A DNA stretch of 64,000 bases from an uncultured Spirochaetota bacterium. GTDB lineage: Bacteria; Spirochaetota; UBA4802; UBA5550. A program made the translations under genes and the position numbers. The stretch lies in contig CAVSFD010000002.1 of NCBI GenBank assembly GCA_963727175.1, forward strand, positions 4,701,381 to 4,765,380, given 5' to 3'. The notes under the pieces are model-generated. The model did no database searches and had not been told where the DNA came from. It worked only from the letters and a program-made list of their open reading frames with translations. Positions within the stretch are counted from its first letter, which is position 1, and each line of letters begins with the position of its first letter. Below are positions 3,912 to 64,000 of this stretch, in pieces.

Positions 3912-4478
3912 ATGGACAATACCGATATCAAAGTGGGCGAAAAGATAAAGAAGTACCGCGAAACAATGAACATATCCCTGGCTGACCTTGCCGAGCGGAC
4001 AGGGTTCTCCCCGGCGTTCCTGTCCCAGCTTGAAAACCACCTCATCTCGCCCCCCCTGGGAGCCCTGATGAAGATAGCCCGTTCCCTCGGCATCGAAATC
4101 GGCAAGCTTTTCGGGCAGAAGGGCACAGCGCCCTTCACCATCGTCCGGAAAGACGAGCGGATCCAGACCTCCCGGGTTGCCTCCAAGGAAGGAGTCCGGT
4201 ACGGGTATTCATACGAATCACTGGCGCCGGATAAGATAAACCGCAAGATGGAGCCCTTCCTGGTGACGCTGGAGCCGGTTTCAAAGAAAGGAATGCCTTA
4301 CAATCACGACGGCGAGGAGTTTCTTTTTGTCCTTGAAGGCAGGGTCGAGATTCAGCTTGGCGAGCATACTGACATTCTCGAGGCGGGGGACAGCATTTAC
4401 TACGATTCAAAACTCGACCACCGGGTCTCCTGCGCCGACGACAGGCCGGCCAGAATAGTCGCCGTCATCTACGCGTAA
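3912..4478 (+). CDS. XRE-family HTH transcriptional regulator with C-terminal cupin domain
   Basis: 188 aa. The N-terminal HTH_3-like segment is IKKYRETMNISLADLAERTGFSPAFLSQLE. The C-terminal cupin-like beta-barrel segment is GEEFLFVLEGRVEIQLGE...GDSIYYDS. Confidence 0.75.
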   Translation: MDNTDIKVGEKIKKYRETMNISLADLAERTGFSPAFLSQLENHLISPPLGALMKIARSLGIEIGKLFGQKGTAPFTIVRKDERIQTSRVASKEGVRYGYSYESLAPDKINRKMEPFLVTLEPVSKKGMPYNHDGEEFLFVLEGRVEIQLGEHTDILEAGDSIYYDSKLDHRVSCADDRPARIVAVIYA

Positions 4479-6842: not shown

Positions 6843-7523
6843 TTAACGGAGAAGGCGCTCAGCGACAAAGTAAAAAAACGCCGCAGCCCCGAGATAGAGG
6901 AGCATGACGGAAAACGCCGCGGGAATCTTGAGCCAGTTCCTTTTTTCCCTGACCTGCTCAAAGGCATACCGGCACGACAGGCCCAGGATGATCTCGGGGA
7001 TAATGATATAGACCGCGGTATGCCCCACCATGGCCACGTTCCGCGCATACCAGGAAGGAAGCATCCACACGGTCTCCTCTGACGCGCCGAAAATCACCAG
7101 GGCCAGGAGCGCAGCGGCCCAGTAGCCGAAACGGGGAGAGAGGCGTTCACTGACCCGCCCGGCAGCGTATATAATGATGAAAACTGGAATGGCCCACAGG
7201 CCTGCCATGTAACCGGAGACTGTGCCGATTTTCAGGAACCCGTCCTCCGGGAAGACCAGTACTCCCAGCTGGTGCGAGAGGAACCAGTCAGGGAACACCT
7301 GGAAGACGCTCAGGATAAGGGCAAAGAGCCAGATGTTGATCCAGAGATCATAGCCGCGGAGCTTTGCCGTGACCGGCAGGGCGATATTGTACAGCACAAC
7401 AAGGATGAAAAGCTTGATGCCGATCTCAGGGCCGGGGATCAGGAGAACCGGGAGGCAGATCAGGGAAAAAGCCGCGTGGAGGATAATAGCATCGCGCTCT
7501 TCACGGGTTAATGAAAACTTCAT
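6843..7523 (-). CDS. Integral membrane protein of unknown function (5-6 TM helices)
   Basis: 226-aa ORF that is hydrophobic throughout. I recognise no catalytic motif. Confidence 0.45.
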   Translation of the reverse strand: MKFSLTREERDAIILHAAFSLICLPVLLIPGPEIGIKLFILVVLYNIALPVTAKLRGYDLWINIWLFALILSVFQVFPDWFLSHQLGVLVFPEDGFLKIGTVSGYMAGLWAIPVFIIIYAAGRVSERLSPRFGYWAAALLALVIFGASEETVWMLPSWYARNVAMVGHTAVYIIIPEIILGLSCRYAFEQVREKRNWLKIPAAFSVMLLYLGAAAFFYFVAERLLR

Positions 7524-7568
7524 GAATGCCTCCTTGAATCAAAATATCAGCCTTCTCAACAATAATTG

Positions 7569-8396
7569 CTATTTCTCGATGCCGGGAATATCAGCCACTT
7601 CGCTGATCCGTTCCTTGATCTGCCTGAGGAGCTTGTCTTCGCCGGCGATTTTTATCAAGATTGCCTTTTGCGGACAGACCTCGGCGCAGCGCCCGCACCC
7701 CTTGCAGTCAGGCCCGATGACGGCCTTGCCCTTTTTCATCTCGATGGCGCATACAAAGCATTTGTCCACGCAGATTTCACAGCCGTCACATTTCTTCGGT
7801 TCAACACGGACCGTGATGCCGGGAAGTTTCTTGAAGGCATTATCAAGGGTGGGGCCCCTCTTTTTCATGTGTGTGCGGTAGATACAGTTGACGTCGTCGC
7901 AGAAACATATGAACATGAGGTCCCTGAAGCTGAGCCAGAAGGCGAAAGGATCAATCCACACATGGGCGACGTTGGCTATGAGTCCCAGTTCCCCGGCGCG
8001 GCGGATATGCTGGATGGCTTCTTTCGTGGTAATCCTGCGGCCGTGAGAGGGATGCATCCTTTTAATGGCCGGTCCCATGGCGATGCACCCGATATAACGG
8101 TCCTCGGTGGCGACCTTGTTGTGGTGCCGGCAGATACATTCATCAAGAACAAACTTTTCGTCAATTTCCGTGACAAGCTTTTCTACGATGTTGCGCGGCA
8201 GCGGCACTGACTTCGGAAAGTCAAGGTTAACGCTGATGGGGATCGATGTCACTTCATTGTGAGGGCGCATGAAAAACGGATTGATGATCCATTTCAACAC
8301 CGGCAGCGAGCTCCATTTTTTTCCGGCCCGAATGATCGGCCACGACAGCCACACCATGAAAGCCACCATCTTTTTCCCTGGACCGTGTTTGAACAT
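7569..8396 (-). CDS. Fe-S cluster-binding protein with a C-terminal 2x[4Fe-4S] ferredoxin-like domain
   Basis: 275 aa. C-terminal CDGCEICVDKC...CKGCGRCAEVCP motifs plus additional upstream Cys clusters (CICRHH, CFCDD). Confidence 0.55.
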   Translation of the reverse strand: MFKHGPGKKMVAFMVWLSWPIIRAGKKWSSLPVLKWIINPFFMRPHNEVTSIPISVNLDFPKSVPLPRNIVEKLVTEIDEKFVLDECICRHHNKVATEDRYIGCIAMGPAIKRMHPSHGRRITTKEAIQHIRRAGELGLIANVAHVWIDPFAFWLSFRDLMFICFCDDVNCIYRTHMKKRGPTLDNAFKKLPGITVRVEPKKCDGCEICVDKCFVCAIEMKKGKAVIGPDCKGCGRCAEVCPQKAILIKIAGEDKLLRQIKERISEVADIPGIEK

Positions 8397-8414
8397 GATT
8401 ACCTCGCCAATGTA

Positions 8415-8693
8415 TTATCTTTCAATGATGCCCTTTTTCAGCGGCAGCCACCAGGTGAACCCGTAGAGGATCGTCTTCAATACAACCATCGACGCGGGAA
8501 CCCCCTTATCCCTGCCTATTTTCAAAGACACCGCGGGGATCTCCACTACATGCAGGATCAAGAGGCCGATAAAAAATATCCTCGACATAAGGGGATCGCC
8601 GGGAAACAGGTAGCGTCCTAACGCCAGGGATAAACCATAAAGGACGATGGCGCCGATCATCAGGAAATACCAGAACATTTTGTTTTGAATCAT
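8415..8693 (-). CDS. Small membrane protein, hypothetical
   Basis: 92 aa with 3 predicted TM helices, immediately downstream of the Fe-S protein gene. Confidence 0.35.
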   Translation of the reverse strand: MIQNKMFWYFLMIGAIVLYGLSLALGRYLFPGDPLMSRIFFIGLLILHVVEIPAVSLKIGRDKGVPASMVVLKTILYGFTWWLPLKKGIIER

Positions 8694-8923: not shown

Positions 8924-9002
8924 TCTGACCCCAATGCAACCGGAACCCGGGGTCAGAGCAACATGCCATGAAACAACTGGCCCCCATGCGATTGGGGGCC
9001 AG
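8924..9002 (-). terminator. Two stem-loops downstream of the secreted hydrolase gene. One has a 10-bp perfect stem (CTCTGACCCC / GGGGTCAGAG). The other has an 8-bp stem (TGGCCCCC / GGGGGCCA).
   Basis: Inverted repeats read in sequence at 8924-8959 and 8979-9002. They lie just 3' of the stop codon at 9034 of the minus-strand gene. Confidence 0.4.
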
Positions 9003-9033
9003 CAATGTCATCATATATACTATGCAGCGGTTG

Positions 9034-10077
9034 TTACCGGGTCAGCTGGGTAACGGCCTTGACCGGCGTACCGTCGCTCCAATTACCCATATCAAAGGTA
9101 AGAGTATTTTGTCCGTCCAGGGCTGCATCAAGGGCGGGCCAGAAAACCCGGTAGTCGAAAGCATCCACCTCGCCGTCGCCGCCGAGCATATTCATCGCCC
9201 AGCTGGGCATCCAGCCATCGTCGCAGATGGGGGCCATGTGGTCGGCTTTAAGGTCCTTGTCGCCATGAGTATCGGTATTGTACTGGTAAATCACCTTTGA
9301 TGGAGCATTCACCAGGGCATCATAGGCCTCATAGGCGGTCTCCGGCAGGGCAATGGTATCATCTGATCCGGTCAGTATAATGACCGGGACCGTGGTTGCA
9401 CGGGCCTTGGCATTGAAATCGAGCTCTGTCACGTCAACAAAGGCGTCAACAAAGGCCGGAATATTGGCGTACAAACAGGGGTCAGCAAGAACGATCCTCT
9501 TAACTGCCGGAGCAATGGCGGCGCCTTCATTATCTGCCCAGCAGAGGCTGATAAGGCCCCCCAGGGAGTGACCGAAAAGCACCATGTTGCTTCGGTCGGC
9601 CTTTGATCCTATCTTATTCAGGGCATCATTCACCGAATCGATGGTCCGGTGCATCATGTTGTACTGATTGTTATCGGTAGCCAGGCCTACGAGGCCGCCC
9701 TTGTTTATCTGCGGGAACAGGACGATGTAGCCCTGCCTGCAGAGGTGCTCGATATGGTCCATGTAAATATCAGGCGCCATAAGCATCATGCCGTGAAGGT
9801 AGATGACAACCGGCGCTTTGGTCCCGTTCTTCAATTTATCGGGGATATAATACCAGCACCAGTAACCGCTCCAGGGATTGTACCAGGCGCCAACCCTGCC
9901 CTCGGTAAAGCCGTTGCATATGTATTTAGCGGATGAGCCATAACCGGATACTGCCTGACCCGGGGCAGTTATCCCGGCCGCCCCGGCCGAATTGAAATCA
10001 CAGTTCAAGGAGAAAATCAGCACCAGCAACGCGATCAATAACAATTTACCCTTCATTGACAAGACCTCCCATTGCAA
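9034..10077 (-). CDS. Secreted alpha/beta-hydrolase (lipase/esterase-like, GHSLGG nucleophile elbow)
   Basis: 347 aa with an N-terminal signal peptide (MKGKLLLIALLVLIFSLN), a GxSxG motif (GHSLGG) and a YLHGM oxyanion-region motif. Confidence 0.7.
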   Translation of the reverse strand: MQWEVLSMKGKLLLIALLVLIFSLNCDFNSAGAAGITAPGQAVSGYGSSAKYICNGFTEGRVGAWYNPWSGYWCWYYIPDKLKNGTKAPVVIYLHGMMLMAPDIYMDHIEHLCRQGYIVLFPQINKGGLVGLATDNNQYNMMHRTIDSVNDALNKIGSKADRSNMVLFGHSLGGLISLCWADNEGAAIAPAVKRIVLADPCLYANIPAFVDAFVDVTELDFNAKARATTVPVIILTGSDDTIALPETAYEAYDALVNAPSKVIYQYNTDTHGDKDLKADHMAPICDDGWMPSWAMNMLGGDGEVDAFDYRVFWPALDAALDGQNTLTFDMGNWSDGTPVKAVTQLTR

Positions 10078-10298
10078 TTTTTTAAGCCGATAACTATCAC
10101 TGCGCCTCCAACTCCAAAATCAGTCTTTATTTATATAAACGTCCAGCGACCGTCCAGTCGGTTTGATGTATACACTATATGCATATACAAAATCCAGATG
10201 CTACTCAATATTACAGATTCTGTAAATTTGACAGAATTCTCGCAGGAAATCTCTTTTTAAAGGGCCAAATCCCTTGAACAACGAGGTATTGCCTTTTA

Positions 10299-11867
10299 TT
10301 AGCGAATATCAAGTTTTAATTCAGCCCGGTACTCGGTAGGTGTTTTGCCGGTGCAGTTTTTAAAGGCCCTGTTGAATGTTGACAGGCTGTCAAAACCCGT
10401 GGCCAGGGCGGCATCAATGATCTTAACCTGCTTGTCCTTAAGGCGTTCCATCGCCTCATGTATCCTGAGCTCATTTATGTAATCATTGATTTTTTTTCCG
10501 GTGAATTCCTTGAACTGGCCGCTGAAATAGTTGGGGTTCATCCCTACCGCAGCGGCAAGGCCCTCGCGGGAAATATCAGACCGGTAATTCTCATTGATGA
10601 AGGCTATGATACTCTTCAATTTTTCCCCGGTTGAATCGGTTACGACCTTTCGCCTGGCATGGTCCGATTTCTGGCCGGGCACATGGAGCTGTTCATAGAG
10701 GACCTTCAGGCTGATCATCCTGCGCTGGTATTCACGCGATCCCAGCACCGCGAAGCCGAGGATAACGAAAGGCGAGAAATAGGTTACTATAAGGAAGGAG
10801 TACCTGCTCCCGGTGATATACAACAATACCTCGAGGATCCCGCCGACGGAGAGGAGCGACACCAGAACCAGGATCACCGCGCACTTGAACCTGTCGGGCC
10901 GAAGCCTGTTGATCCTCAGGGTCATGTACACGGCATAGGGGATGAAAGCGGTTATTATCACCAGGCCATAGAGAGGGTTCAGATAAAAATCGAGGACGAT
11001 GTAATTCAAAAGAAATATCACGCCGGACACAGCAAGTACCCCGCCGTTGATGATCCATGAATATTCAAACAAATCAACGCGGTACAGCGCCTGAATAATG
11101 AGAATGAACAGAATGCCGAAGAGCGGCATTGCCAGCATAAGCAGGGGCGGGATCATATCAAGGGCAACCATTTTGTAGGGGGAAAAAATGGTGATGATGT
11201 AGACCGCATTGAGGAGCTGCACCAGGATCTCGTACAGGAAGAGCCTGTCATATCCGTAAAAAATTGTCACTGCCGTCATGAGCAGGATGCTTCCCGCGAG
11301 GAGAAGGAGTATGCCGATGGGAAGCTGGTTGTAGATCAGGTCATAGAAGTTCTTCAGGCGGCGGTATTCCATCTTCGGCTGGATATAGACCCCGTCAGGG
11401 AGGCCGCCGTACTCATAGCTGTAAATGCCCAGGTACAGGTAAATTTCATTTTTTCCTTTTTTGAGGAGGCCCCGGGGCATCATAAAACTTTCCGGGTAAT
11501 GAAGATTGGATATCTCGGGCGGCGTTTTAACGTCGATCAGGTAATCATTGATGAATATTTCATACGTGTAATTGATTCTTCCCAGCGTAATGCCGTAATA
11601 CTTCTCCGGATTGTCTTTTATATCAAATTCACCCCTGAGCCAGCAATACCGGAAGGCCCGCTCCGCCTTATAGGGCAGCCGAAACTTCGATGGTATTTGT
11701 ATGGGGACCCATCCGGTCATTCCCCGAACAGCGTCGATTGACGGCTCCTGGCTGTACAGCACCATCCATTCCCGTACCTGGATGGATTCCGGAATAGCAG
11801 GAAAGCAAAATGATCGGGCCGGCAGTAAGATAAAAAAACACGCGGCGATGAGCAATGGCAACTTCAT
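10299..11867 (-). CDS. Membrane-bound AraC-family transcriptional regulator with 7TMR-DISM sensor (periplasmic domain + 7TM) N-terminal to the HTH
   Basis: 522 aa with a signal peptide, a periplasmic domain, about 7 TM helices and a C-terminal AraC HTH (DSLSTFNRAFKNCTGKTPTEYR). Confidence 0.75.
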   Translation of the reverse strand: MKLPLLIAACFFILLPARSFCFPAIPESIQVREWMVLYSQEPSIDAVRGMTGWVPIQIPSKFRLPYKAERAFRYCWLRGEFDIKDNPEKYYGITLGRINYTYEIFINDYLIDVKTPPEISNLHYPESFMMPRGLLKKGKNEIYLYLGIYSYEYGGLPDGVYIQPKMEYRRLKNFYDLIYNQLPIGILLLLAGSILLMTAVTIFYGYDRLFLYEILVQLLNAVYIITIFSPYKMVALDMIPPLLMLAMPLFGILFILIIQALYRVDLFEYSWIINGGVLAVSGVIFLLNYIVLDFYLNPLYGLVIITAFIPYAVYMTLRINRLRPDRFKCAVILVLVSLLSVGGILEVLLYITGSRYSFLIVTYFSPFVILGFAVLGSREYQRRMISLKVLYEQLHVPGQKSDHARRKVVTDSTGEKLKSIIAFINENYRSDISREGLAAAVGMNPNYFSGQFKEFTGKKINDYINELRIHEAMERLKDKQVKIIDAALATGFDSLSTFNRAFKNCTGKTPTEYRAELKLDIR

Positions 11868-12020
11868 AACTTTATAAATTTCACTTCAAGGTAATTTTAA
11901 CAAGTAAAAAATATCCTGTGAGCGGATAATTTAGAGGTCAGATTATCACTGTCAACCTATGATTATCTGCATGAGATGTAAAGCATCAGAAATACAAGCC
12001 GTGAGACCGGGTCAGATTAA

Positions 12021-13988
12021 TTATTTTCCTGCGCTGTACCGTCCATCAAGGTCAATGATCATGCTGTCGACGCGGCTCTCGAAGAGCTCCAAAGCCTCGT
12101 CAAAATATGCGCGGAAGTCCCTGTTGACGGAGCGGTATTTTTTACGCGCCCTCGCTTTCAGAGCGCGGCAGTATTTCTGAAGATCAGGGAGTGAATCACC
12201 GCCCGGGGCCATCGCCTCGATCTTCTTTTTCATAGATAGAGTCATGGCGTCAATGTATATCCGCATATCTTCGGCAAGCTTCTTCATCGGCTCCTCGATG
12301 GTGCTGTGGAAATCGTCATGGAGCATGCGGTATTTCATTCTGACTGCCGCGGCAAAGGTCTTTCCGAACACCTCGCGGTCGAGGGCAAGAAGCTCCCGAA
12401 CGATATCCTCCATGCGGCCGAAGCGGGCCCGTTCGATCCTGTTTCTCAGGCTCATCCGCATCGTTTCGATCGATGCAGACAGGTCATCCGCCGCGAGGAT
12501 TTCTTTTGTTATCCTGAAAAAGTGGTACCCGAAAAGGGCCATCTTGACCGCCTTGGGAAAGAGCCCCGGCCGAATCCGCACGGCCGCGGCAAGGTAGTTC
12601 AGGTATTCCCTTCCATATGAAGAGAATATCTGACGGAACACCGAGGAGAGAAAAATCCTGACAACGAGGAGGATCGTCCAGAAGGATAATGCCCCGCGGC
12701 CAACCTTCCCCCGGGGCATTCTCTGCATCATGGTAAGGCACCGGTTGAAGTACTCCCGGGGCGTGTAGATCTGCGATATCAGCTCCCTGTACCCCTTCGC
12801 CAGCGTTTCTCCGTCCATGACAGGGATAAAGTTGGTGGTGAAGCTGTGGGTGTTGTTCCCCGACGTCTCCGACAGTATCCGTCCCTCCGAATTGAGACGG
12901 CGATAAAGCCGGGTATTGGGAAGGGCGATGAGTAGTCCCGCCATGGCCATGGGTATGCCCGATTCGCGGATGAAATCGATCTGCAGGTCAAAGACATTCT
13001 CAGGGTCGCTGTCAAAGCCGATGATGAACCCTGCCGTCACTTCCATTCCCTTGCGCTGGATGCGCTCCACTCCCCGGAGAAGGGAACCCTTGAGGTTCTG
13101 CTTCTTCCCGGCCTGTTCGAGGCATTCCGCGACCGGGGTTTCGATGCCCAGGAAGACCTTGTTGAACCCGGCGTCGATCATCAGGTCCATCAGTTCCTCG
13201 TCGTCGGCGAGATTGACGCTGGCCTCGGTGGTTATCATGTAGGGATAGTGCCGTTCCTCCTGCCACCGTGCGACCGCGGTGAGAAGCTCTTTCACATTCT
13301 TTTTGTTGCCGATAAAGTTGTCGTCCACTATGAAGAGCGGCCCCCGGTAACCGGTGCGGTACAGCGCTTCCATTTCGGCGATAAACTGCTCCGGCGTCTT
13401 GGCACGGGGCACCCGGCCGAAAAACTCAATGATGTCACAGAACTCGCAGTTGAAGGGACATCCCCGGGAATACTGCAGTGACATGGTGGTATAGCGGCGG
13501 TGCTTCACCAGGCTGAAGCGGGGGACCGGTGTTTTCGTGATGTCCGGTCTCGAATCGCTCCGGTACAGGGGCCGGGCCTCGCCCTTCTCCCAGTCCTGAA
13601 GGAACTGCGGCAGCGTTACCTCCGCCTCACCCAGGACAAAGTGGTCAACGCCGGTAATATGCCGGTGAGACCCCGTGGGATAAGGTCCCCCGGCCACGAC
13701 GGTTTTACCGAGTCTGTTGCACAGGGCCACGACCCGGTCAAAGGATTCCTTCTGTATGATCATGGCGGAGATGAAAACCAGATCAGCCTTCTTTACATCC
13801 CGCACCATCAGCTTCTCAGTGTTCATGTCCACCAGGGTTATATCATAGCTGTCCGGGATAAGCGATGCCACGGTCATCAGTCCCAGCGGCGGAAAGGCCG
13901 AACGCCGGCCCACCAGCTTCAGTATGTACTTAAAGCTCCAGTAGGTCACCGGGGTATCAGGATATATCATCAGTATCTTTTTTTTCAT
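12021..13988 (-). CDS. B12-binding domain radical SAM protein (class B rSAM with C-terminal DUF4070-like extension)
   Basis: 655 aa. The N-terminal Rossmann-like cobalamin-binding region is MIYPDTPVTYW...LGLMTVASL. The rSAM Cys motif is CPFNCEFC (CxxxCxxC). Confidence 0.8.
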   Translation of the reverse strand: MKKKILMIYPDTPVTYWSFKYILKLVGRRSAFPPLGLMTVASLIPDSYDITLVDMNTEKLMVRDVKKADLVFISAMIIQKESFDRVVALCNRLGKTVVAGGPYPTGSHRHITGVDHFVLGEAEVTLPQFLQDWEKGEARPLYRSDSRPDITKTPVPRFSLVKHRRYTTMSLQYSRGCPFNCEFCDIIEFFGRVPRAKTPEQFIAEMEALYRTGYRGPLFIVDDNFIGNKKNVKELLTAVARWQEERHYPYMITTEASVNLADDEELMDLMIDAGFNKVFLGIETPVAECLEQAGKKQNLKGSLLRGVERIQRKGMEVTAGFIIGFDSDPENVFDLQIDFIRESGIPMAMAGLLIALPNTRLYRRLNSEGRILSETSGNNTHSFTTNFIPVMDGETLAKGYRELISQIYTPREYFNRCLTMMQRMPRGKVGRGALSFWTILLVVRIFLSSVFRQIFSSYGREYLNYLAAAVRIRPGLFPKAVKMALFGYHFFRITKEILAADDLSASIETMRMSLRNRIERARFGRMEDIVRELLALDREVFGKTFAAAVRMKYRMLHDDFHSTIEEPMKKLAEDMRIYIDAMTLSMKKKIEAMAPGGDSLPDLQKYCRALKARARKKYRSVNRDFRAYFDEALELFESRVDSMIIDLDGRYSAGK

Positions 13989-14399
13989 TATTGCAGCTCC
14001 TGAAAATTACGCGTTGCGGAAGCGATGCCTATAATACAACAATATCGGCCCGTATCAATCAATACAGCACTTAAAGAACGCGCTAAACAGGGATCATGTG
14101 ATTGTTTGAATTAATATACGGCGAGGGCAGAATCATGTCAAGAAAATAGTTGGACAGTAACCAGTTATCTGGCTTTATCAGAATCATGGCGATTATTGCT
14201 TGCAGCGATAGTAGCAGGTGCCTGAGCCGTCCCAGCGAGCAGGCGACAGGGATGTCGCCGATTCCGCCAAGTCAATATGGTGCGCTGGTCAGGATGGCCG
14301 AGTGCAGAGCCGCGACAGGATGTCGCATTTGGCTCTGCTTATACGAGGCGGACAGGCTGTATAGCTCCGCGCCCTTTATGATTTTTTTTGTGGTGGCGA

Positions 14400-16298
14400 C
14401 TACGCCGAGTCACTGAAGCGCAGCACCAGCTCGAAGACCCCGTCATCCATTTTCTTCTCGATGTCGGGAAACATTTTTTCGAACACGTGAAGCATGGGAC
14501 GGTTCTCCACCAGGACCTCGGCGGTGAAGCCGAGGAGCCCCTCGCGCTTGGCAAGGAGAATGAGATATGCCAGGAGTTCGGTTCCGATCCCGCGGTTGTG
14601 CATATCGTCCCGGACCGCAAAGGCCACCTCTGCCGTGTGGCTTTTTTCATCCTTGATCATCTGACCCATGCCGGCGGCGACATCCTTGCTGCCTTCCTCG
14701 ACAAAGGCCAGGATAACCAGCTCCTTCGTGTAATCAATCACCACGAAATCCTGCCGCCGTTCGTGGGGCATGTCAAGGCGCGACGACATGAAGCGGCGCT
14801 GGAAGCTCTGGTCCGAAAGGGAGTAGAACAGGTCCTTGATGATGGACTCGTCGTTTATATTCACCGGACGCATCATCAGCGCAGCACCCTGCCTGGTCGT
14901 CCGGTAGGTTATCAGGTATGACGGGTATTCTCCGCGCTTGCCGGGGATGAAGGCCTGGTCCTTGTAAATCAGATTGAGTCTCTTCGCCTCTTCGATCAGC
15001 CATGGCCTGAACTTCGGGTGGGCGATGGCAATGAGGTCCATGGCCCGCTCGCGGATGTTCTTACCGTGGATGTATGCGATGCCGTATTCGGTCACCACGT
15101 AATTGACGTCGCCGCGGTTCAGGGTCACACCGGTGCCGGGGTCAAGGAACGGGACAATGCGCGACACCTCGCCTCCCCGGGCAGTGGACTGCAGCACGAG
15201 GATCGTCTTACCTCCCGGGGAAAGGATTGCGCCGCGCATGAAATCGGCACTCCCGCCGATGCCGCTGAAGAACTGGTTGCCGATCGACTCCGCCGTGGCC
15301 TGGCCCGTGAGGTCTATCTGGAGGGCGGCATTGATGGCCGCCATGTTACTGTTCTGCGCTATCACAAGGGGATTATTGGTATAGCTGATCCGCTTGAATT
15401 CGACAAAAGGGTTGTCGTCGATGTACTCGTATGTTTCTTTCACACCCATGCAGAAGGCGGCCATGGTCTTGCCGCGGTCGGCCGTCTTTCTCGAATTGTC
15501 CACCACTCCCTTCTTGAGGAGGTCCATCATGGAGTGGGTGAAGAGCTCACTGTGCACGCCAAGATTATTCTTTTCGCCCAGGCTGGACATGATGGCGTTG
15601 GGCATGCTGCCGTATCCCACCTGTATCGTATCACCGTCATTCACGATGCTTGCCACATATCGGCCTATCTGGTGGGCTATTTCGTCCGGGACAGCCGGGT
15701 TATATTCCAGAAGATCCTCTTCGTGCTCGACAACAAAGCCGATGTCCTTGATGCTCAGGAAGGTGTCGCCATGCACCCGTGGCATCCGGGGATTCATCTG
15801 GGCAATTACCAGGGAGGCATTCTCAATGGCGTCCATGCAAATATCCACGCTGACCCCCAGGCTCACATAACCGTTCTGGTCGGGGAGCGAGGTCTGGATG
15901 AGGGCCACGTCGATAGGGATCATCTTGTTACGGAAAAGCTGCGGTATCCGCGACAGGAAAATGGGCGTGTAATCCGCCATGCCGGTATTGACGGAGTCAC
16001 GGGTATTGTCTCCAACGAAAAAGGAATTGGACCTGAAATTTGATCCGAACTTCTGGTCCGAGTACGGCGCAACGCCGAGGGTCCATACCTGCATCAGTTC
16101 CGCATCGACAATTGCCTTGGGGTGCGACTCGGCATATTGCACCAGGGCCTTGACCAGGTACTGCGGTTCGCCGCATGCGGTGCTGATGAATAACCGGTCC
16201 CCGCGGTGGATATGGGAAAAAATTTTGTCCTCGGATTCAAATTTCTCCGGGTACCCGTCCTTCCACATTTTGAAGTAATCGCCGCGTCGTCTGTCCAT
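14400..16298 (-). CDS. Acetyl-CoA hydrolase/transferase family domain fused to a C-terminal GNAT N-acetyltransferase domain
   Basis: 632 aa. Residues ~1-440 resemble 4-hydroxybutyrate/acetate CoA-transferases (GIGGSADFMRGA motif). Residues ~470-632 carry GNAT motifs (AFAVRDDMHNRGIGTELL). Confidence 0.75.
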   Translation of the reverse strand: MDRRRGDYFKMWKDGYPEKFESEDKIFSHIHRGDRLFISTACGEPQYLVKALVQYAESHPKAIVDAELMQVWTLGVAPYSDQKFGSNFRSNSFFVGDNTRDSVNTGMADYTPIFLSRIPQLFRNKMIPIDVALIQTSLPDQNGYVSLGVSVDICMDAIENASLVIAQMNPRMPRVHGDTFLSIKDIGFVVEHEEDLLEYNPAVPDEIAHQIGRYVASIVNDGDTIQVGYGSMPNAIMSSLGEKNNLGVHSELFTHSMMDLLKKGVVDNSRKTADRGKTMAAFCMGVKETYEYIDDNPFVEFKRISYTNNPLVIAQNSNMAAINAALQIDLTGQATAESIGNQFFSGIGGSADFMRGAILSPGGKTILVLQSTARGGEVSRIVPFLDPGTGVTLNRGDVNYVVTEYGIAYIHGKNIRERAMDLIAIAHPKFRPWLIEEAKRLNLIYKDQAFIPGKRGEYPSYLITYRTTRQGAALMMRPVNINDESIIKDLFYSLSDQSFQRRFMSSRLDMPHERRQDFVVIDYTKELVILAFVEEGSKDVAAGMGQMIKDEKSHTAEVAFAVRDDMHNRGIGTELLAYLILLAKREGLLGFTAEVLVENRPMLHVFEKMFPDIEKKMDDGVFELVLRFSDSA

Positions 16299-16480
16299 AG
16301 CGCCATCCTTAAAGACCGCATAGTGCGGATCATTATTTCAATTATATAACCAATTATGCATATTTCAAGGATTATTTGGTGATAGTGGCACATTCGACAG
16401 TAAAAAACTTTGCCGTCATAATGGGATGATTTTTTGAAAAACAGATAGAAACGGTGCTATGTTTGACGGTATGTCAGATC

Positions 16481-17473
16481 TTAAACCTTCACGGCAGCTC
16501 TTCTTTTAACCGACCGCATCTTCCCATCATTACGAAGCGCAACTTTTTTCTTCATGGCGGGCTTCTTTCCCTTCATGAAAAACGCGTGGGCGTCACGGGC
16601 AGTCACGGCCGGCATCTCCTCCATCGGCATATGGCCGCAGTCATCATAGAGCACCAGCTCCGCGTGGGGAAGGTCCCGCTTCCAGTGATCAATCGTCTCC
16701 TTCCATCGCGACCAGATATCCTTCTTTCCCCATGCCATCATCACCGGCATCTGTAGCTTTTTGACATCGAGATAGATCGTGTCAGACCTGCTCATGTCGG
16801 CAATCACCTTGAAGATTTTCGACAGGGTGCGCCGGTTCCCCTCGCGCATGATGAGGTCCCAGTACATGTCATACACTGCCGGCGTAATTCTTTCCTTCCT
16901 GCCGTACAGGCGTTCGATGCTGGTCTTGATCAGCAGCCGCGGCAGCATCACGTTATTGATTACGGATTTTACTCCCGGTATCTGCGCCAGCTTGAATTCA
17001 TACGGAAGGGACTGGTTATAGGCTATCGGATCCAGCAGCAGAAGTTTTTCTATCATGTCCGGACGGTGTACGGCGTATTTCCATGCGTAGAAACCGCCCA
17101 GAGAATTCCCCGCGATAAAGCAGCGCTTGATCTTCAGCGCATCGAGGAAAGAATCGAGAAAGGCGTTCATGGCTTCGTCCATGTATTCCTCTTCCCTTGA
17201 AGGACCGGTGATGCCCCACCCGGGCAGGTCCAGACGGATGATGCGGTAGTGGTCTTTCAGCTCATTGTACCAGCCGTCCCAGGTATGCAGAAAGGCGACA
17301 ACGCCATGGAGCAGCACCAGCACGGGGCCCGTGCCCTGGTCCTTGTAATGCACATCCATGCCGTTTATCGTTATGAATTTTGAATCCTCATCGCAATACT
17401 TGCATTTCATCTTTTCTAACGGGTTTGAGCGAATGCCGGGATTAAAATTCTGGAGAAACATTTCTACTGACAT
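16481..17473 (-). CDS. Alpha/beta-fold hydrolase (GNSLGG) with a Lys-rich C-terminal tail
   Basis: 330 aa with an HG oxyanion-hole motif (VLLHGVVAFLHTW), nucleophile GNSLGG and the catalytic His region (DDCGHMP). Confidence 0.75.
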   Translation of the reverse strand: MSVEMFLQNFNPGIRSNPLEKMKCKYCDEDSKFITINGMDVHYKDQGTGPVLVLLHGVVAFLHTWDGWYNELKDHYRIIRLDLPGWGITGPSREEEYMDEAMNAFLDSFLDALKIKRCFIAGNSLGGFYAWKYAVHRPDMIEKLLLLDPIAYNQSLPYEFKLAQIPGVKSVINNVMLPRLLIKTSIERLYGRKERITPAVYDMYWDLIMREGNRRTLSKIFKVIADMSRSDTIYLDVKKLQMPVMMAWGKKDIWSRWKETIDHWKRDLPHAELVLYDDCGHMPMEEMPAVTARDAHAFFMKGKKPAMKKKVALRNDGKMRSVKRRAAVKV

Positions 17474-17754
17474 GATGGACCCCTGGGAATTAATTTACAA
17501 TCTTCATTAAATTAAAACGCTAACCGCATCGGTAAGTAATAAATCCGACCGTCTGTATGGATTAAAAATATCACATTGCAAGTCCTTTGTCTGGCCACAT
17601 ATCGTTATGCCAGAATCTGTCCCTGCATCATAAATTGGATGGCGGAATTGAATCAACATGCCATTGCGCCAAATCAAGATCGTGCTTGATTTGGCCAGAT
17701 GCGGGATTATTCAGAAGATTTTTCAGTTACAGGGTCAGAGTAACACCAGTTTTG

Positions 17755-17950
17755 CACCGATAACAATCGGCCTATAAGATCAAAAAGCATGGTGCCTGAG
17801 TAAATTCCCGTCTCTGTACCGATAACTATCGGTCACAAAATATAATAATTGGGCTGTCAAAGCAAACTCCTGCCTCTGTACCGATAACTATCAGCCTCAA
17901 AACCAAAAATCCGGGTGCCAGAGTAACACACCAAACAGATGGATAACTGA
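17755..17950. repeat. Three to four tandem ~62-bp repeats, each carrying the inverted repeat ACCGATAAC(A/T)ATCGG, immediately upstream of gltS
   Basis: The copies sit at 17757-17770, 17819-17832 and 17881-17894 with a period of exactly 62 bp. A partial fourth GATAAC lies at 17943. The inter-copy segments are diverged but alignable. Confidence 0.6.
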
Positions 17951-17996
17951 CAATTTATTCATTGACGCCGGCATTCTTCTTTGAACAATTTCCCGC

Positions 17997-19229
17997 ATGT
18001 TTACATTAGACATGATACAGACCGTGGCCTTTGCCGGGCTGGTGGTCTTCACCGGCTATGGCATAAGGAAGATCGTCCCGATCCTGGCCCGCTACAATCT
18101 GCCGGCGCCGGTGCTGGGAGGACTGGTCATCGCCCTGGTCAACCTCGCGGCCCGGGGCTTTGGAGGAAGCCCCTTTACCTTCGACACGTCCCTGCAGACG
18201 CCACTCATGACCGCATTTTTCACCTCCATCGGCCTCGGGAGCAGCCTGAAGCTCTTACGGACCGGTGGAGTCAAAATAGTCACCTTTTTGATCATCGCCA
18301 TACTTTTCACGATACTGCAGAACGCCATAGGGATAGCCGTAGCCGTGCCCCTGGGCCAGCACCCCCTTTTCGGTGTGTTCAACTCCTCGGTGACCCTGGT
18401 GGGAGGGCCCGCCACGGGACTAGCCTTCGCGCCTCTCTTCGAGAAGGCCGGCGTCCACGGCGCGTCGTCCCTGGCTGTCGCCTCTGCCATGACCGGAATC
18501 ATCTGCGGGGGCCTCATCGGCGCCCCTATCGGAACCTGGCTCATTGAGCGTTACCGCCTGCGCCACGGCACCGGCAACCCCATCCCCGGCCGCGTGCCTG
18601 CCCCGACGGAGATCGTGGAAGAACAACTCGCTGAAGAAATTGGGGAATCCCCCTCCGGGGAAGATCCATCGGCCTATATTCTGCTGAAAAACCTGGTGGC
18701 CATCCTCGCGGCCATGTGGATCGGTTACTGGATCAGCAGGGGCTTCTCCGCACTGGGGATGACACTGCCCGCCTATATCGGTGCCATGTTCGCCGGCGCC
18801 ATCATCAGCAACCTGGCTGATCTCACCGGCGTTATCACCCTGTCACAGAAATCGATCGACGATATCGGCACCGTGGCCCTCACCCTCTTCATCGCAATGG
18901 CTATGATGACCCTGAAGCTATGGGAACTGGCGGACGTGGCCCTCCCCATGCTGGCGGTCGTGGCGGCGCAGGTAATCGTGGTGGGGGCGGCCTGCTTCTG
19001 GCCCCTCTTCCGCCTCTTCGGCAGGGACTATGACGCTGCCGTCACCTGTGCCGGCTTCTGTGGCTTCATGCTGGGCACCACTGCCAACGCCATGGCAAGC
19101 ATGGAGTCCCTTGCCGAACGGTACGGCCCGGCGAAGCGCGCTTTCCTGGTGGTGCCGATCGTGGGGGCCTTCTTCATAGACTTCGCCAACGCCATCATCA
19201 TCACGGTGTTTTTGAACCTGTTCTCATAA
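17997..19229 (+). CDS. gltS: Sodium/glutamate symporter
   Basis: 410 aa and polytopic, with conserved GltS segments (LPAPVLGGLVIAL...GGPATGLAFAPLFEKAG). Confidence 0.85.
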   Translation: MFTLDMIQTVAFAGLVVFTGYGIRKIVPILARYNLPAPVLGGLVIALVNLAARGFGGSPFTFDTSLQTPLMTAFFTSIGLGSSLKLLRTGGVKIVTFLIIAILFTILQNAIGIAVAVPLGQHPLFGVFNSSVTLVGGPATGLAFAPLFEKAGVHGASSLAVASAMTGIICGGLIGAPIGTWLIERYRLRHGTGNPIPGRVPAPTEIVEEQLAEEIGESPSGEDPSAYILLKNLVAILAAMWIGYWISRGFSALGMTLPAYIGAMFAGAIISNLADLTGVITLSQKSIDDIGTVALTLFIAMAMMTLKLWELADVALPMLAVVAAQVIVVGAACFWPLFRLFGRDYDAAVTCAGFCGFMLGTTANAMASMESLAERYGPAKRAFLVVPIVGAFFIDFANAIIITVFLNLFS

Positions 19230-19450
19230 CATCGGCGGATGGCATAAAACACGGGCCTTGCACCATTATTGCGCCGGATGATGCGGCTACGGTCTGTTAT
19301 ATGATTCTGTATGGCCGCGATGGGCTTCTCTGAAATTTTCGGAGAACAAGGCGGCAGGTAATTTCCTTGACATCCAGCAGTGAATAAAATATTTTTTTGC
19401 AATTACATTGCAACAGACTGCATATTCAACGGCATGCGGGGTGAGATAAT

Positions 19451-20002
19451 TTGAAGAAATATATTATTTTCTCTCTTATAACTGTTATATTCTTATCCGG
19501 CTGTACTTATTTTAGAATAAAAAACAAAAAAAATCCGGCCGTTGATTTAAACAGGTATAACAAAATATACCTCGGGTGGATGGATCTTGGTGAAGAAAAA
19601 TGGGCAGCATATCATTATTCAAATGAAAAAGAATGGCTTGACCTGATCAACCGCGCAAATCGATCGGCAATGCCTTCATATTTCAAAGAAGTTTTTGAGG
19701 ACAAATTTATTATTGCAGCAAAAAAACCGGGTGAACCCCTTCCCAAGGACGGCTTAATCATAAAATTTCAAAACGCGAATTACATATATGCGGATGATGA
19801 ATTGTACGTGGTGATAAATCTGACAGATGGCGCAACCTCTCAAAACCTGGCAATGACATCGGTGTATATAAAAGCCTGGCGGGGAGGCGGATGGAGCGTA
19901 TGGACTTTTGAAGACCGGGTAATGAATTCCATCCGAAATCTTGCTTATTTCGTAAAAGAAATAATCTTCAGGATCAACAGCATTAATAACAGACCCTGGT
20001 GA
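19451..20002 (+). CDS. Lipoprotein of unknown function, encoded in a local AT-rich patch (~34% GC)
   Basis: 183 aa with signal peptide and lipobox (IFLSGC). No catalytic motifs. Base composition differs strongly from the flanking genes. Confidence 0.5.
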   Translation: MKKYIIFSLITVIFLSGCTYFRIKNKKNPAVDLNRYNKIYLGWMDLGEEKWAAYHYSNEKEWLDLINRANRSAMPSYFKEVFEDKFIIAAKKPGEPLPKDGLIIKFQNANYIYADDELYVVINLTDGATSQNLAMTSVYIKAWRGGGWSVWTFEDRVMNSIRNLAYFVKEIIFRINSINNRPW

Positions 20003-63571: not shown

Positions 63572-64000
63572 CCTGGGCGATAAAAATATCATAATCGAGG
63601 GCGATGATTATTACATCGCGGAGAACGCGGTGGTGGTGGGATCGGTCCGCATCGGCAACAATGTGAGCGTATGGTTCAACGCCGTGGTGCGCGCCGACGA
63701 CGGCACGATAGTTATCGGTGAGAATTCAAACATACAGGACGGAGCCGTGCTCCACTGCGAAAAGGAAAACGACCTTGTCATCGGCCGGGGCGTCACCGTG
63801 GCCCACCACGCGATGCTCCACGGCTGCGTCATCGGAGACAACTCCCTCATCGGCATCAACGCCGTGGTCCTGAACGGGGCGGTCATCGGGAAAAACTGTC
63901 TCGTCGGCGCCGGGGCCCTGGTCCTGGAAAAGAGCGTCATCCCGGACAATTCAATGGTTCTCGGCGCCCCGGCCAGGGTCGTTCGGCCGGTGACGGAGGA
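63558..64000 (+). CDS. Gamma-carbonic-anhydrase-like / hexapeptide-repeat (left-handed beta-helix) protein, 3' end truncated by the window
   Basis: Repeating [LIV]-G-x-x-x-x hexapeptides. The His ligands are at AHHAMLHGCVIG. Confidence 0.7.

Follow-up and report, generated by a model that had tools for sequence, protein, structure and literature searches.

A CoA-transferase–GNAT fusion, a candidate protein acyltransferase, beside a gene for a radical-SAM protein with a predicted cobalamin-binding domain in one Spirochaetota clade

The 64-kb stretch of DNA analysed here, which we call the window, comes from an uncultured Spirochaetota bacterium and encodes at 12021-17473, on its minus strand, an alpha/beta hydrolase, a fusion of a coenzyme A (CoA)-transferase to a GNAT acetyltransferase domain, and a predicted cobalamin (B12)-dependent radical S-adenosylmethionine (radical-SAM) protein. 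The original prediction joined the three into a small modification pathway for a lipid, cofactor or secondary metabolite. Our analysis points to three genes with their own promoter-like sites rather than to a three-enzyme pathway. With somewhat better than even confidence, we propose that the fusion acylates proteins in an acyl-CoA-dependent manner and has a functional CoA-transferase domain, that the radical-SAM gene has replaced an acyl-CoA synthetase gene at this locus in one clade, and that the hydrolase and a nearby AraC-type regulator are bystanders. In the mechanism we consider most likely, the fusion would acylate, and so regulate, a protein target, and the acyl-CoA would be made or sensed by its own CoA-transferase domain. 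In one Spirochaetota clade, the position otherwise held by the genes for the synthetase and an AAA_26/DRTGG protein would have been taken by a radical-SAM gene that encodes DUF4070 and a cobalamin-binding domain. The resulting gene pair is probably co-transcribed where its members lie 17-52 base pairs (bp) apart, and would be split in the window by a promoter-bearing 411-bp spacer.

The exact ends of all three open reading frames (ORFs) were confirmed, and with the Pfam matches they bear out the minus-strand ORFs and domains that had been predicted: the hydrolase gene at 16481-17473 (330 amino acids), the fusion gene at 14400-16298 (632 amino acids) and the B12/radical-SAM/DUF4070 gene at 12021-13988 (655 amino acids). 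These genes and that for the AraC-type sensor are co-directional on the minus strand, as had been claimed. Transcription on that strand would run from the hydrolase (17473-16481) through the fusion (16298-14400) and the radical-SAM gene (13988-12021) to the AraC-type gene (11867-10299), an order that overturns two parts of the earlier description: the hydrolase gene is the first and 5'-most of the set and not the last, and the cluster does not lie downstream of the AraC sensor, which sits 3' of the radical-SAM gene. The intergenic gaps of 182 bp (hydrolase/fusion), 411 bp (fusion/radical-SAM) and 153 bp (radical-SAM/AraC) are long for an operon. The closest homologs come from uncultured Spirochaetota.

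The fusion protein matches both domains of a family-I CoA-transferase (AcetylCoA_hydro PF02550, E 1e-48; AcetylCoA_hyd_C PF13336, E 4e-62) and a GNAT domain (Acetyltransf_1, E 9e-10). Its CoA-transferase part (residues 6-445; 14964-16283, minus strand) is of the 4-hydroxybutyrate CoA-transferase type. Solved enzymes of that type match residues 16-444 (PDB 9vag, E 1e-109; 3gk7, E 5e-104), and E251, in the motif LGVHSE, aligns to position 238 of chain 3gk7 (GIHSE), which serves as catalytic glutamate in the enzyme from Clostridium aminobutyricum. A GxGG motif, SGIGGSADF, is also present, and both the motif and E251 are invariant in 12 family members (alignment A1). With both domains, the glutamate and the GxGG motif in place, the protein belongs to the 4-hydroxybutyrate subgroup of family-I CoA-transferases, and judged by its sequence this part of it looks catalytically intact; it scores 256 bits against the butyryl-CoA:acetate CoA-transferase equivalog TIGR03948, below that model's cutoff of 674.8 bits.

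The GNAT domain (residues 454-628; 14415-14939, minus strand) is of the Pat type. Its best PDB matches, all over the full length of the domain, are 4nxy (a 194-residue chain), 4ava (a lysine acetyltransferase), 9it0 (an 886-residue protein acetyltransferase) and 4orf, with E values of 1e-11 to 1e-12 for the first three, and E557 (AEVA) aligns to E809 of 9it0/PatZ (AEFA), which places the domain, with its catalytic glutamate, in the Pat clade of GNATs. The fusion does not reach the cutoff of the Pat equivalog model NF058543 (74 vs 460 bits). Nor does it carry either kind of Pat-type regulatory part, a synthetase-like domain of the nucleoside diphosphate (NDP)-forming kind (types I and II) or a small sensor domain (type III); a CoA-transferase is fused in its stead. 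In PatZ, acetyl-CoA binds to the synthetase-like regulatory domain, which is an allosteric activator of the GNAT domain (PMC12184503). The Pfam and PDB matches thus confirm the predicted fusion of a CoA-transferase fold to a GNAT domain, an architecture that appears undescribed: our literature searches found no account of a CoA-transferase or acetyl-CoA hydrolase joined to a GNAT domain. An AlphaFold2 model of the whole fusion was set aside, as it was built on a 12-sequence alignment and had a predicted local distance difference test (pLDDT) score of 59 and a predicted template-modelling score of 0.45, values at which neither the arrangement of the domains nor channelling between them can be read.

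To place the fusion in a wider context we scanned species-representative genomes and examined the best 80 of at least 593 relatives, with flanks of 10 kb on either side searched by tBLASTn. Only two of these 80 loci (L026 and L053) have a radical-SAM homolog in their flanks; both belong to the same near-identical relatives as the ortholog loci L001 and L002 described below, and the remaining 78 form a set from outside the clade. At least 78 bacterial and archaeal species have full-length homologs of the fusion (45-68% identity), and the best 80 relatives include members of the Spirochaetota, Desulfobacterota, Nitrospirota, Chloroflexota, Bacillota, Thermotogota, Thermoplasmatota, Methanothrix, Hodarchaeota and Bathyarchaeia. 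None of the 78 outside-clade loci has a B12 radical-SAM gene within the flanks. Clustering of flanking ORFs instead identifies two recurrent partners, a synthetase of about 700 amino acids that is predicted to be an adenosine diphosphate (ADP)-forming acyl-CoA synthetase (38 of 78 loci) and the AAA_26/DRTGG protein (33 of 78); in 27 loci the synthetase gene begins 8-195 bp past the fusion. The synthetase has CoA_binding_2, Succ_CoA_lig, Ligase_CoA_2 and ATP-grasp_5 domains and keeps the SHTGSL histidine motif, its nearest relative of known structure is an ADP-forming 4-hydroxybutyrate-CoA ligase (PDB 8wzu, E 3e-138), and PatZ matches it at E 1e-71. Even a Spirochaetota fusion that is 74% identical to ours still lies within the usual synthetase/DRTGG operon, and a search of the 64-kb window found neither of the two partners and no radical-SAM paralog. 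From these usual partners we infer a role for the fusion in the interconversion zone of short-chain acyl-CoAs and free carboxylates.

The three-gene arrangement of fusion, synthetase and DRTGG genes is found in L007, L008, L011, L012, L014, L017, L048, L173 and about 20 more loci, spans Bacteria and Archaea, and often has gaps of 8-30 bp. In content it is like a Pat/PatZ protein that has been split and has gained a CoA-transferase, and literature searches for this operon found no description.

The radical-SAM protein contains a B12-binding domain (PF02310, residues 31-129, 38.5 bits against a cutoff of 32.1), a Radical_SAM domain (PF04055, residues 173-328, E 3.8e-17) and DUF4070 (PF13282, residues 359-499, E 4.8e-30). 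The sequence CPFNCEFC at residues 177-184 (nucleotides 13437-13460), a [4Fe-4S]-type CxxxCxxC motif formed by C177, C181 and C184, lies within the Radical_SAM domain and is invariant in 12 orthologs, and the PF02310 match agrees with a beta/alpha N-terminal domain in the AlphaFold2 model, which marks it as a cobalamin-binding Rossmann domain. What had been described as a C-terminal extension consists of DUF4070 and a further stretch of about 155 residues (500-655; 12024-12491, minus strand) that is modelled as all-helical, in long helices. This last stretch has no significant Pfam match and only a sub-threshold, apolipoprotein-like one; among homologs it aligns poorly and varies in length. Pfam, ortholog invariance and the model thus agree with the original assignment as a class-B radical-SAM protein with a CPFNCEFC motif and a C-terminal extension, and its description as a member of a large family with few assigned functions stands as well: the B12/radical-SAM/DUF4070 family has at least 8000 matches, and no named NCBIfam class-B family (ApyD, PhpK, BchE, HpnR, HpnJ, QCMT, the ladderane lipid radical-SAM family or others) was reached. 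All 23 NCBIfam matches fall far under their cutoffs (15-75 vs 250-775 bits), the best being ApyD (75 vs 750).

Among solved structures, the closest in sequence is that of the methyl-coenzyme M reductase glutamine methylase QCMT/MgmA (9ccb, E 2e-11), which matches over the core only. By structure, Foldseek neighbours of the AlphaFold2 model (pLDDT 74) include AprD4, OxsB, MgmA/QCMT, CysS and TsrM, at 13-20% identity; as a guide to function we set this comparison aside, as it confirms the fold class only. The protein is probably a methyl-transfer or other radical enzyme; AprD4 and OxsB have the same fold yet are not methylases. DUF4070 follows the radical-SAM core in the hopanoid methylase HpnP (PMC10697835), and the hopanoid methylase was the only context in which our literature search on DUF4070 function found the domain. 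A 588-amino-acid protein of the same B12/radical-SAM/DUF4070 family (P0088), 50% identical to the one studied here, is probably a paralog in the same genome. Beyond the immediate orthologs we sampled the wider family through the metagenome loci of the best 80 of at least 575 hits (46-59% identity over residues 4-495). These 80 loci have no conserved neighbour, the top recurring family appearing in seven of them, and none has the fusion, the hydrolase or the AraC-type gene beside the radical-SAM gene.

Within the clade, the fusion and radical-SAM genes stay together while their surroundings change. We compared 12 ortholog loci, all from Spirochaetota and with radical-SAM identities of 62-84%: the window, L001, L002/L003, L004, L005 and L166-L172. 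The radical-SAM gene has the fusion as its immediate upstream neighbour in the window, L001, L002/L003, L004, L166, L168, L170, L171 and L172, and in L167 a single peptidase gene sits between them, so that the pair is co-directional in 10 of the 12 loci; L005 and L169 retain the radical-SAM gene and lack the fusion. At least five different genes or gene sets adjoin the pair upstream (the hydrolase, an epimerase, a GGDEF/EAL gene, a GNAT-like gene or a DUF819 gene) and at least five downstream (the AraC-type gene, a 92-amino-acid ORF followed by a ferredoxin-like gene, a cupin gene, a 7TMR histidine kinase gene or a DUF7380 gene), and in L172 the pair is kept with nothing else downstream syntenic. 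This turnover of both flanks identifies the two genes as a conserved pair in one Spirochaetota clade. The gaps within the pair are 17, 17, 21, 46, 52, 204, 232, 343, 411 and 881 bp; those of 17-52 bp are found in L166, L168, L170, L171 and L172, with GGAAG resembling a ribosome-binding site within the 17-bp spacers, and those of 204-411 bp in the window's closest group. The expectation that the genes would be found together in related genomes therefore holds in part, for the fusion and radical-SAM pair in 10 of 12 loci of one clade, and does not hold for the hydrolase or the AraC-type gene.

Promoter-like sequences in the window separate the three genes. Each is preceded by a near-consensus sigma-70-like site. 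That of the fusion gene, TTGAAA-16-TATAAT at 16341-16368 on the minus strand, matches the consensus at 11 of 12 positions, and the context of its -35 element, AATAATCCTTGAAATA, is kept in L001, L002, L004, L166 and L170 whatever the upstream gene. That of the radical-SAM gene, TTGACA-17-TATATT at 14113-14141 on the minus strand, again has 11 of 12 matches and belongs to a stretch of about 190 bp before the start codon that is common to the window, L002 and L004 and includes TTGACA-17-TATAxT. Just upstream of this -35 element lies a perfect palindrome, TTGGACATTGTCCAA, in L002 (9830-9844) and L004 (9785-9799); it is degenerate in the window (CTGGTTACTGTCCAA, 14136-14164) and may be an operator for a regulator of the radical-SAM gene. 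The gaps of 182 and 411 bp, each with an 11/12 promoter-like site, are thus not those of a three-gene operon, which would have short gaps and no internal promoters, and these conserved sites, one to a gene, argue against the transcription of the interval as a single cluster.

The spacers themselves yielded little else. No convincing intrinsic terminator, with a GC hairpin and a U-tract, was found after the hydrolase or the fusion gene, a Rfam search of 9000-19500 at a permissive threshold returned one chance-level eukaryotic match and no riboswitch (cobalamin included) or known small RNA in the spacers, and Tandem Repeats Finder reported nothing meaningful. RNA folding between these two genes of the pair predicts a GC-rich nested hairpin, without a U-tract, at 14304-14338 (minus strand), within a 220-nucleotide stretch whose fold has a z score of -2.0. 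The distal part of the 411-bp spacer, about 200 bp within 14180-14399, is specific to the window, being absent from L001 and L004 and unalignable in L002; the 14180-14399 segment has two similar hairpins, GCGACATCCTGTCGC and GGCGACATCCCTGTCGCC, and may be the insertion of a small repeat element.

The hydrolase is an incidental, unrelated neighbour and not part of the conserved pair. It is an alpha/beta hydrolase by its Abhydrolase_1 match (PF00561, E 2e-24) and its nucleophile motif GNSLGG, which fits GxSxG, and it reaches no NCBIfam equivalog in a scan of the NCBIfam models. Of the ortholog loci, just the window, L001 and L002/L003 place it beside the fusion; in these relatives radical-SAM identity is at least 81% and the entire 20 kb is syntenic. 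It is missing from all nine more distant ortholog loci, where its slot is held by one of the other upstream genes listed above, and a single locus among the 78 outside the clade has a weak alpha/beta-hydrolase match within the flanks. Between gltS and the hydrolase gene, at 17757-17894, lie three operator-like palindromes of the form CCGATAACTATCGG with 62-bp spacing. The motif has eight matches against 3.1 expected, with further copies in the window at 10087-10100 and 63705-63718 and in relatives at L001 6200-6288 and 13800, L002 13625-13702, L004 13895, L166 6078-6268 and L167 10159-10193. In the relatives it precedes a chlorophyllase-like hydrolase gene, a 2-oxoacid:ferredoxin oxidoreductase operon beside an XRE-cupin regulator gene, and cobU, and it was not found at the fusion or radical-SAM promoters in the window or the relatives. 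This recurrence suggests a lineage-wide regulon. An XRE-cupin gene at 3912-4478 encodes a candidate regulator for the CCGATAACTATCGG sites.

The AraC-type regulator, too, is a bystander and not part of the pair. Its gene (10299-11867, minus strand; HTH_18, E 7e-22), 3' of the radical-SAM gene, encodes a membrane-bound protein that starts with a signal-like segment and combines an extracytoplasmic part, about 160 residues long, with about 6-7 hydrophobic segments. It occurs in five of the 12 ortholog loci (the window, L001, L002, L005 and L169), always with a chlorophyllase-like alpha/beta-hydrolase gene, and is absent from the other seven. With that hydrolase gene it behaves as an inserted two-gene module (9034-11867) between the radical-SAM gene and the 92-amino-acid ORF and ferredoxin-like genes. 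We considered the AraC-type protein as the regulator of the cluster and rejected it on the grounds of its 3' location, its absence from most ortholog loci and its association with a different hydrolase. Beyond the module, 6843-8693 holds the 92-amino-acid ORF, with two predicted transmembrane segments, a gene for a 275-amino-acid protein with a C-terminal 2x[4Fe-4S] ferredoxin domain (a sub-threshold EFR1-like match), and a gene for a DUF6989 membrane protein. In L004, L166 and L170 the ORF and the ferredoxin-like gene come immediately after the radical-SAM gene, and in L171 the ORF alone does so; the ferredoxin-like protein might supply the radical-SAM enzyme with electrons.

How the fusion and its neighbours should be read together is a matter of weighing these observations. 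The model originally put forward, in which hydrolase, fusion and radical-SAM protein form one lipid, cofactor or secondary-metabolite pathway under AraC control, can point to four co-directional genes and to the retention of the trio and the AraC-type gene in L001 and L002/L003. These relatives are, however, near-identical and syntenic over the whole 20 kb; the trio is found nowhere else, neither in the nine more distant orthologs, which lack the hydrolase, nor in the 78 and 80 family loci, and the AraC-type gene is absent from seven of the 12. The 182- and 411-bp gaps each hold a conserved promoter-like site, the CCGATAACTATCGG array lies upstream of the hydrolase and not at the other two promoters, and the AraC-type gene is 3' of the others and paired with a different, chlorophyllase-like hydrolase. 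The three-gene pathway fails because the two observations that its own proposal named as counting against it, a lack of co-occurrence in relatives and evidence of separate transcription (here, conserved promoter-like sites), are largely what we find, and we regard it as highly improbable. It is also improbable, if less so, that the GNAT domain N-acylates a small molecule such as an amine, an amino acid or an antibiotic-like compound, with the CoA-transferase domain channelling the acyl-CoA, which would be the channelling originally suggested, confined to the fusion. In favour of this reading, the two active sites appear intact, the chemistry of GNAT domains is versatile, and the match to the Pat equivalog is far under its cutoff (74 vs 460 bits). 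Against this, all the best GNAT relatives of known structure are protein lysine acetyltransferases that match over the full length, the usual partner is an ADP-forming acyl-CoA synthetase, the module that forms the regulatory domain of PatZ (E 1e-71), and no small-molecule biosynthetic genes recur in the fusion flanks.

A third possibility, that the fusion and the radical-SAM protein are a clade-specific two-enzyme module, with the radical-SAM protein C-methylating or otherwise modifying the carboxylate or acyl group activated by the CoA-transferase domain, or modifying the protein acylated by the GNAT domain, is one we think unlikely without dismissing it. The genes are neighbouring and co-directional in 10 of 12 ortholog loci as both flanks turn over, the gaps shrink to 17-52 bp in five of them (L166, L168, L170, L171 and L172) with GGAAG in the 17-bp spacers, L172 retains the pair without other downstream synteny, and the radical-SAM gene stands in the exact slot of the acyl-CoA synthetase of the usual operon. 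The closest solved sequence relative of the radical-SAM protein, QCMT/MgmA (9ccb, E 2e-11), is a protein-modifying methylase, but this likeness is confined to the radical-SAM core. Moreover, the phylogenetic span is narrow (radical-SAM identity 62-84%) and the region broadly syntenic by descent, L005 and L169 keep the radical-SAM gene without the fusion, L167 has a peptidase gene inserted, the radical-SAM gene has a conserved predicted promoter and palindrome of its own in the window, L002 and L004, and co-occurrence was not seen in any of the 78 and 80 loci outside the clade.

We therefore return to the fusion as a protein acyltransferase whose usual synthetase neighbour has been exchanged for a radical-SAM gene, and give here what weighs against it. 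The GNAT domain could acylate a small molecule rather than a protein. Separate transcription of the genes in the window is deduced from consensus motifs and their conservation. The tight gaps of 17-52 bp in five relatives mean that the pair can be one transcript, so that a functional link between the two proteins may exist after all; we put a functional coupling of the fusion and the radical-SAM protein at rather less than an even chance. A bolder version, which we hold to be distinctly unlikely, would make the fusion a representative of an undescribed class of protein acyltransferases common in anaerobic Bacteria and Archaea, in which a catalytically active CoA-transferase domain makes or selects the acyl-CoA for the GNAT domain; in this Spirochaetota clade it would be re-partnered with a cobalamin radical-SAM enzyme, and the two would together install or process an uncommon acyl group, perhaps one that is C-methylated, on a protein or a metabolite.

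What appears new at this locus is the fusion architecture and its proposed re-partnering rather than a new pathway, and we regard it as a modest lead; the three-enzyme pathway as first proposed was not upheld and matters little. The fusion family could be a type of protein acylation system, responsive to acyl-CoA, that is missing from present descriptions of anaerobes, among them syntrophs and Methanothrix-type methanogens. For the radical-SAM protein, the lineage-specific exchange of the synthetase for a DUF4070 radical-SAM gene would be a rare gene-context clue for a very large family that is otherwise without conserved neighbours.

Among known systems, one close parallel is with Pat, PatZ and SlPatA, which join a GNAT domain to an NDP-forming, synthetase-like regulatory domain. 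The GNAT domain of the fusion is homologous to theirs over its whole length and shares the catalytic glutamate (E557, corresponding to E809 of PatZ), and the synthetase module fused in PatZ is of the same kind as the product of the next gene in the wider fusion family. In contrast to these proteins, the extra domain of the fusion is a family-I CoA-transferase with a catalytic glutamate and not a synthetase-like domain, and no synthetase gene lies within this 64-kb window. The 4-hydroxybutyrate CoA-transferases (AbfT/Cat2) and butyryl-CoA:acetate CoA-transferases match the fusion over their full length and share the glutamate of the HSE motif and the GxGG motif, whereas the fusion has an additional C-terminal GNAT domain of about 180 residues. 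The usual operon of fusion, ADP-forming synthetase and AAA_26/DRTGG genes found elsewhere has the fusion gene in common with our locus, at 45-74% identity, and differs in that the window clade, in which the fusions are at least 80% identical, lacks the synthetase and DRTGG genes at the locus and has the radical-SAM gene downstream. The radical-SAM protein, in turn, shares the B12 Rossmann domain and the CxxxCxxC barrel with the class-B enzymes HpnP, HpnR, BchE, QCMT/MgmA, CysS, TsrM, OxsB and AprD4; as in HpnP, DUF4070 comes after the core, and it differs from all these named enzymes in its additional helical extension of about 155 residues.

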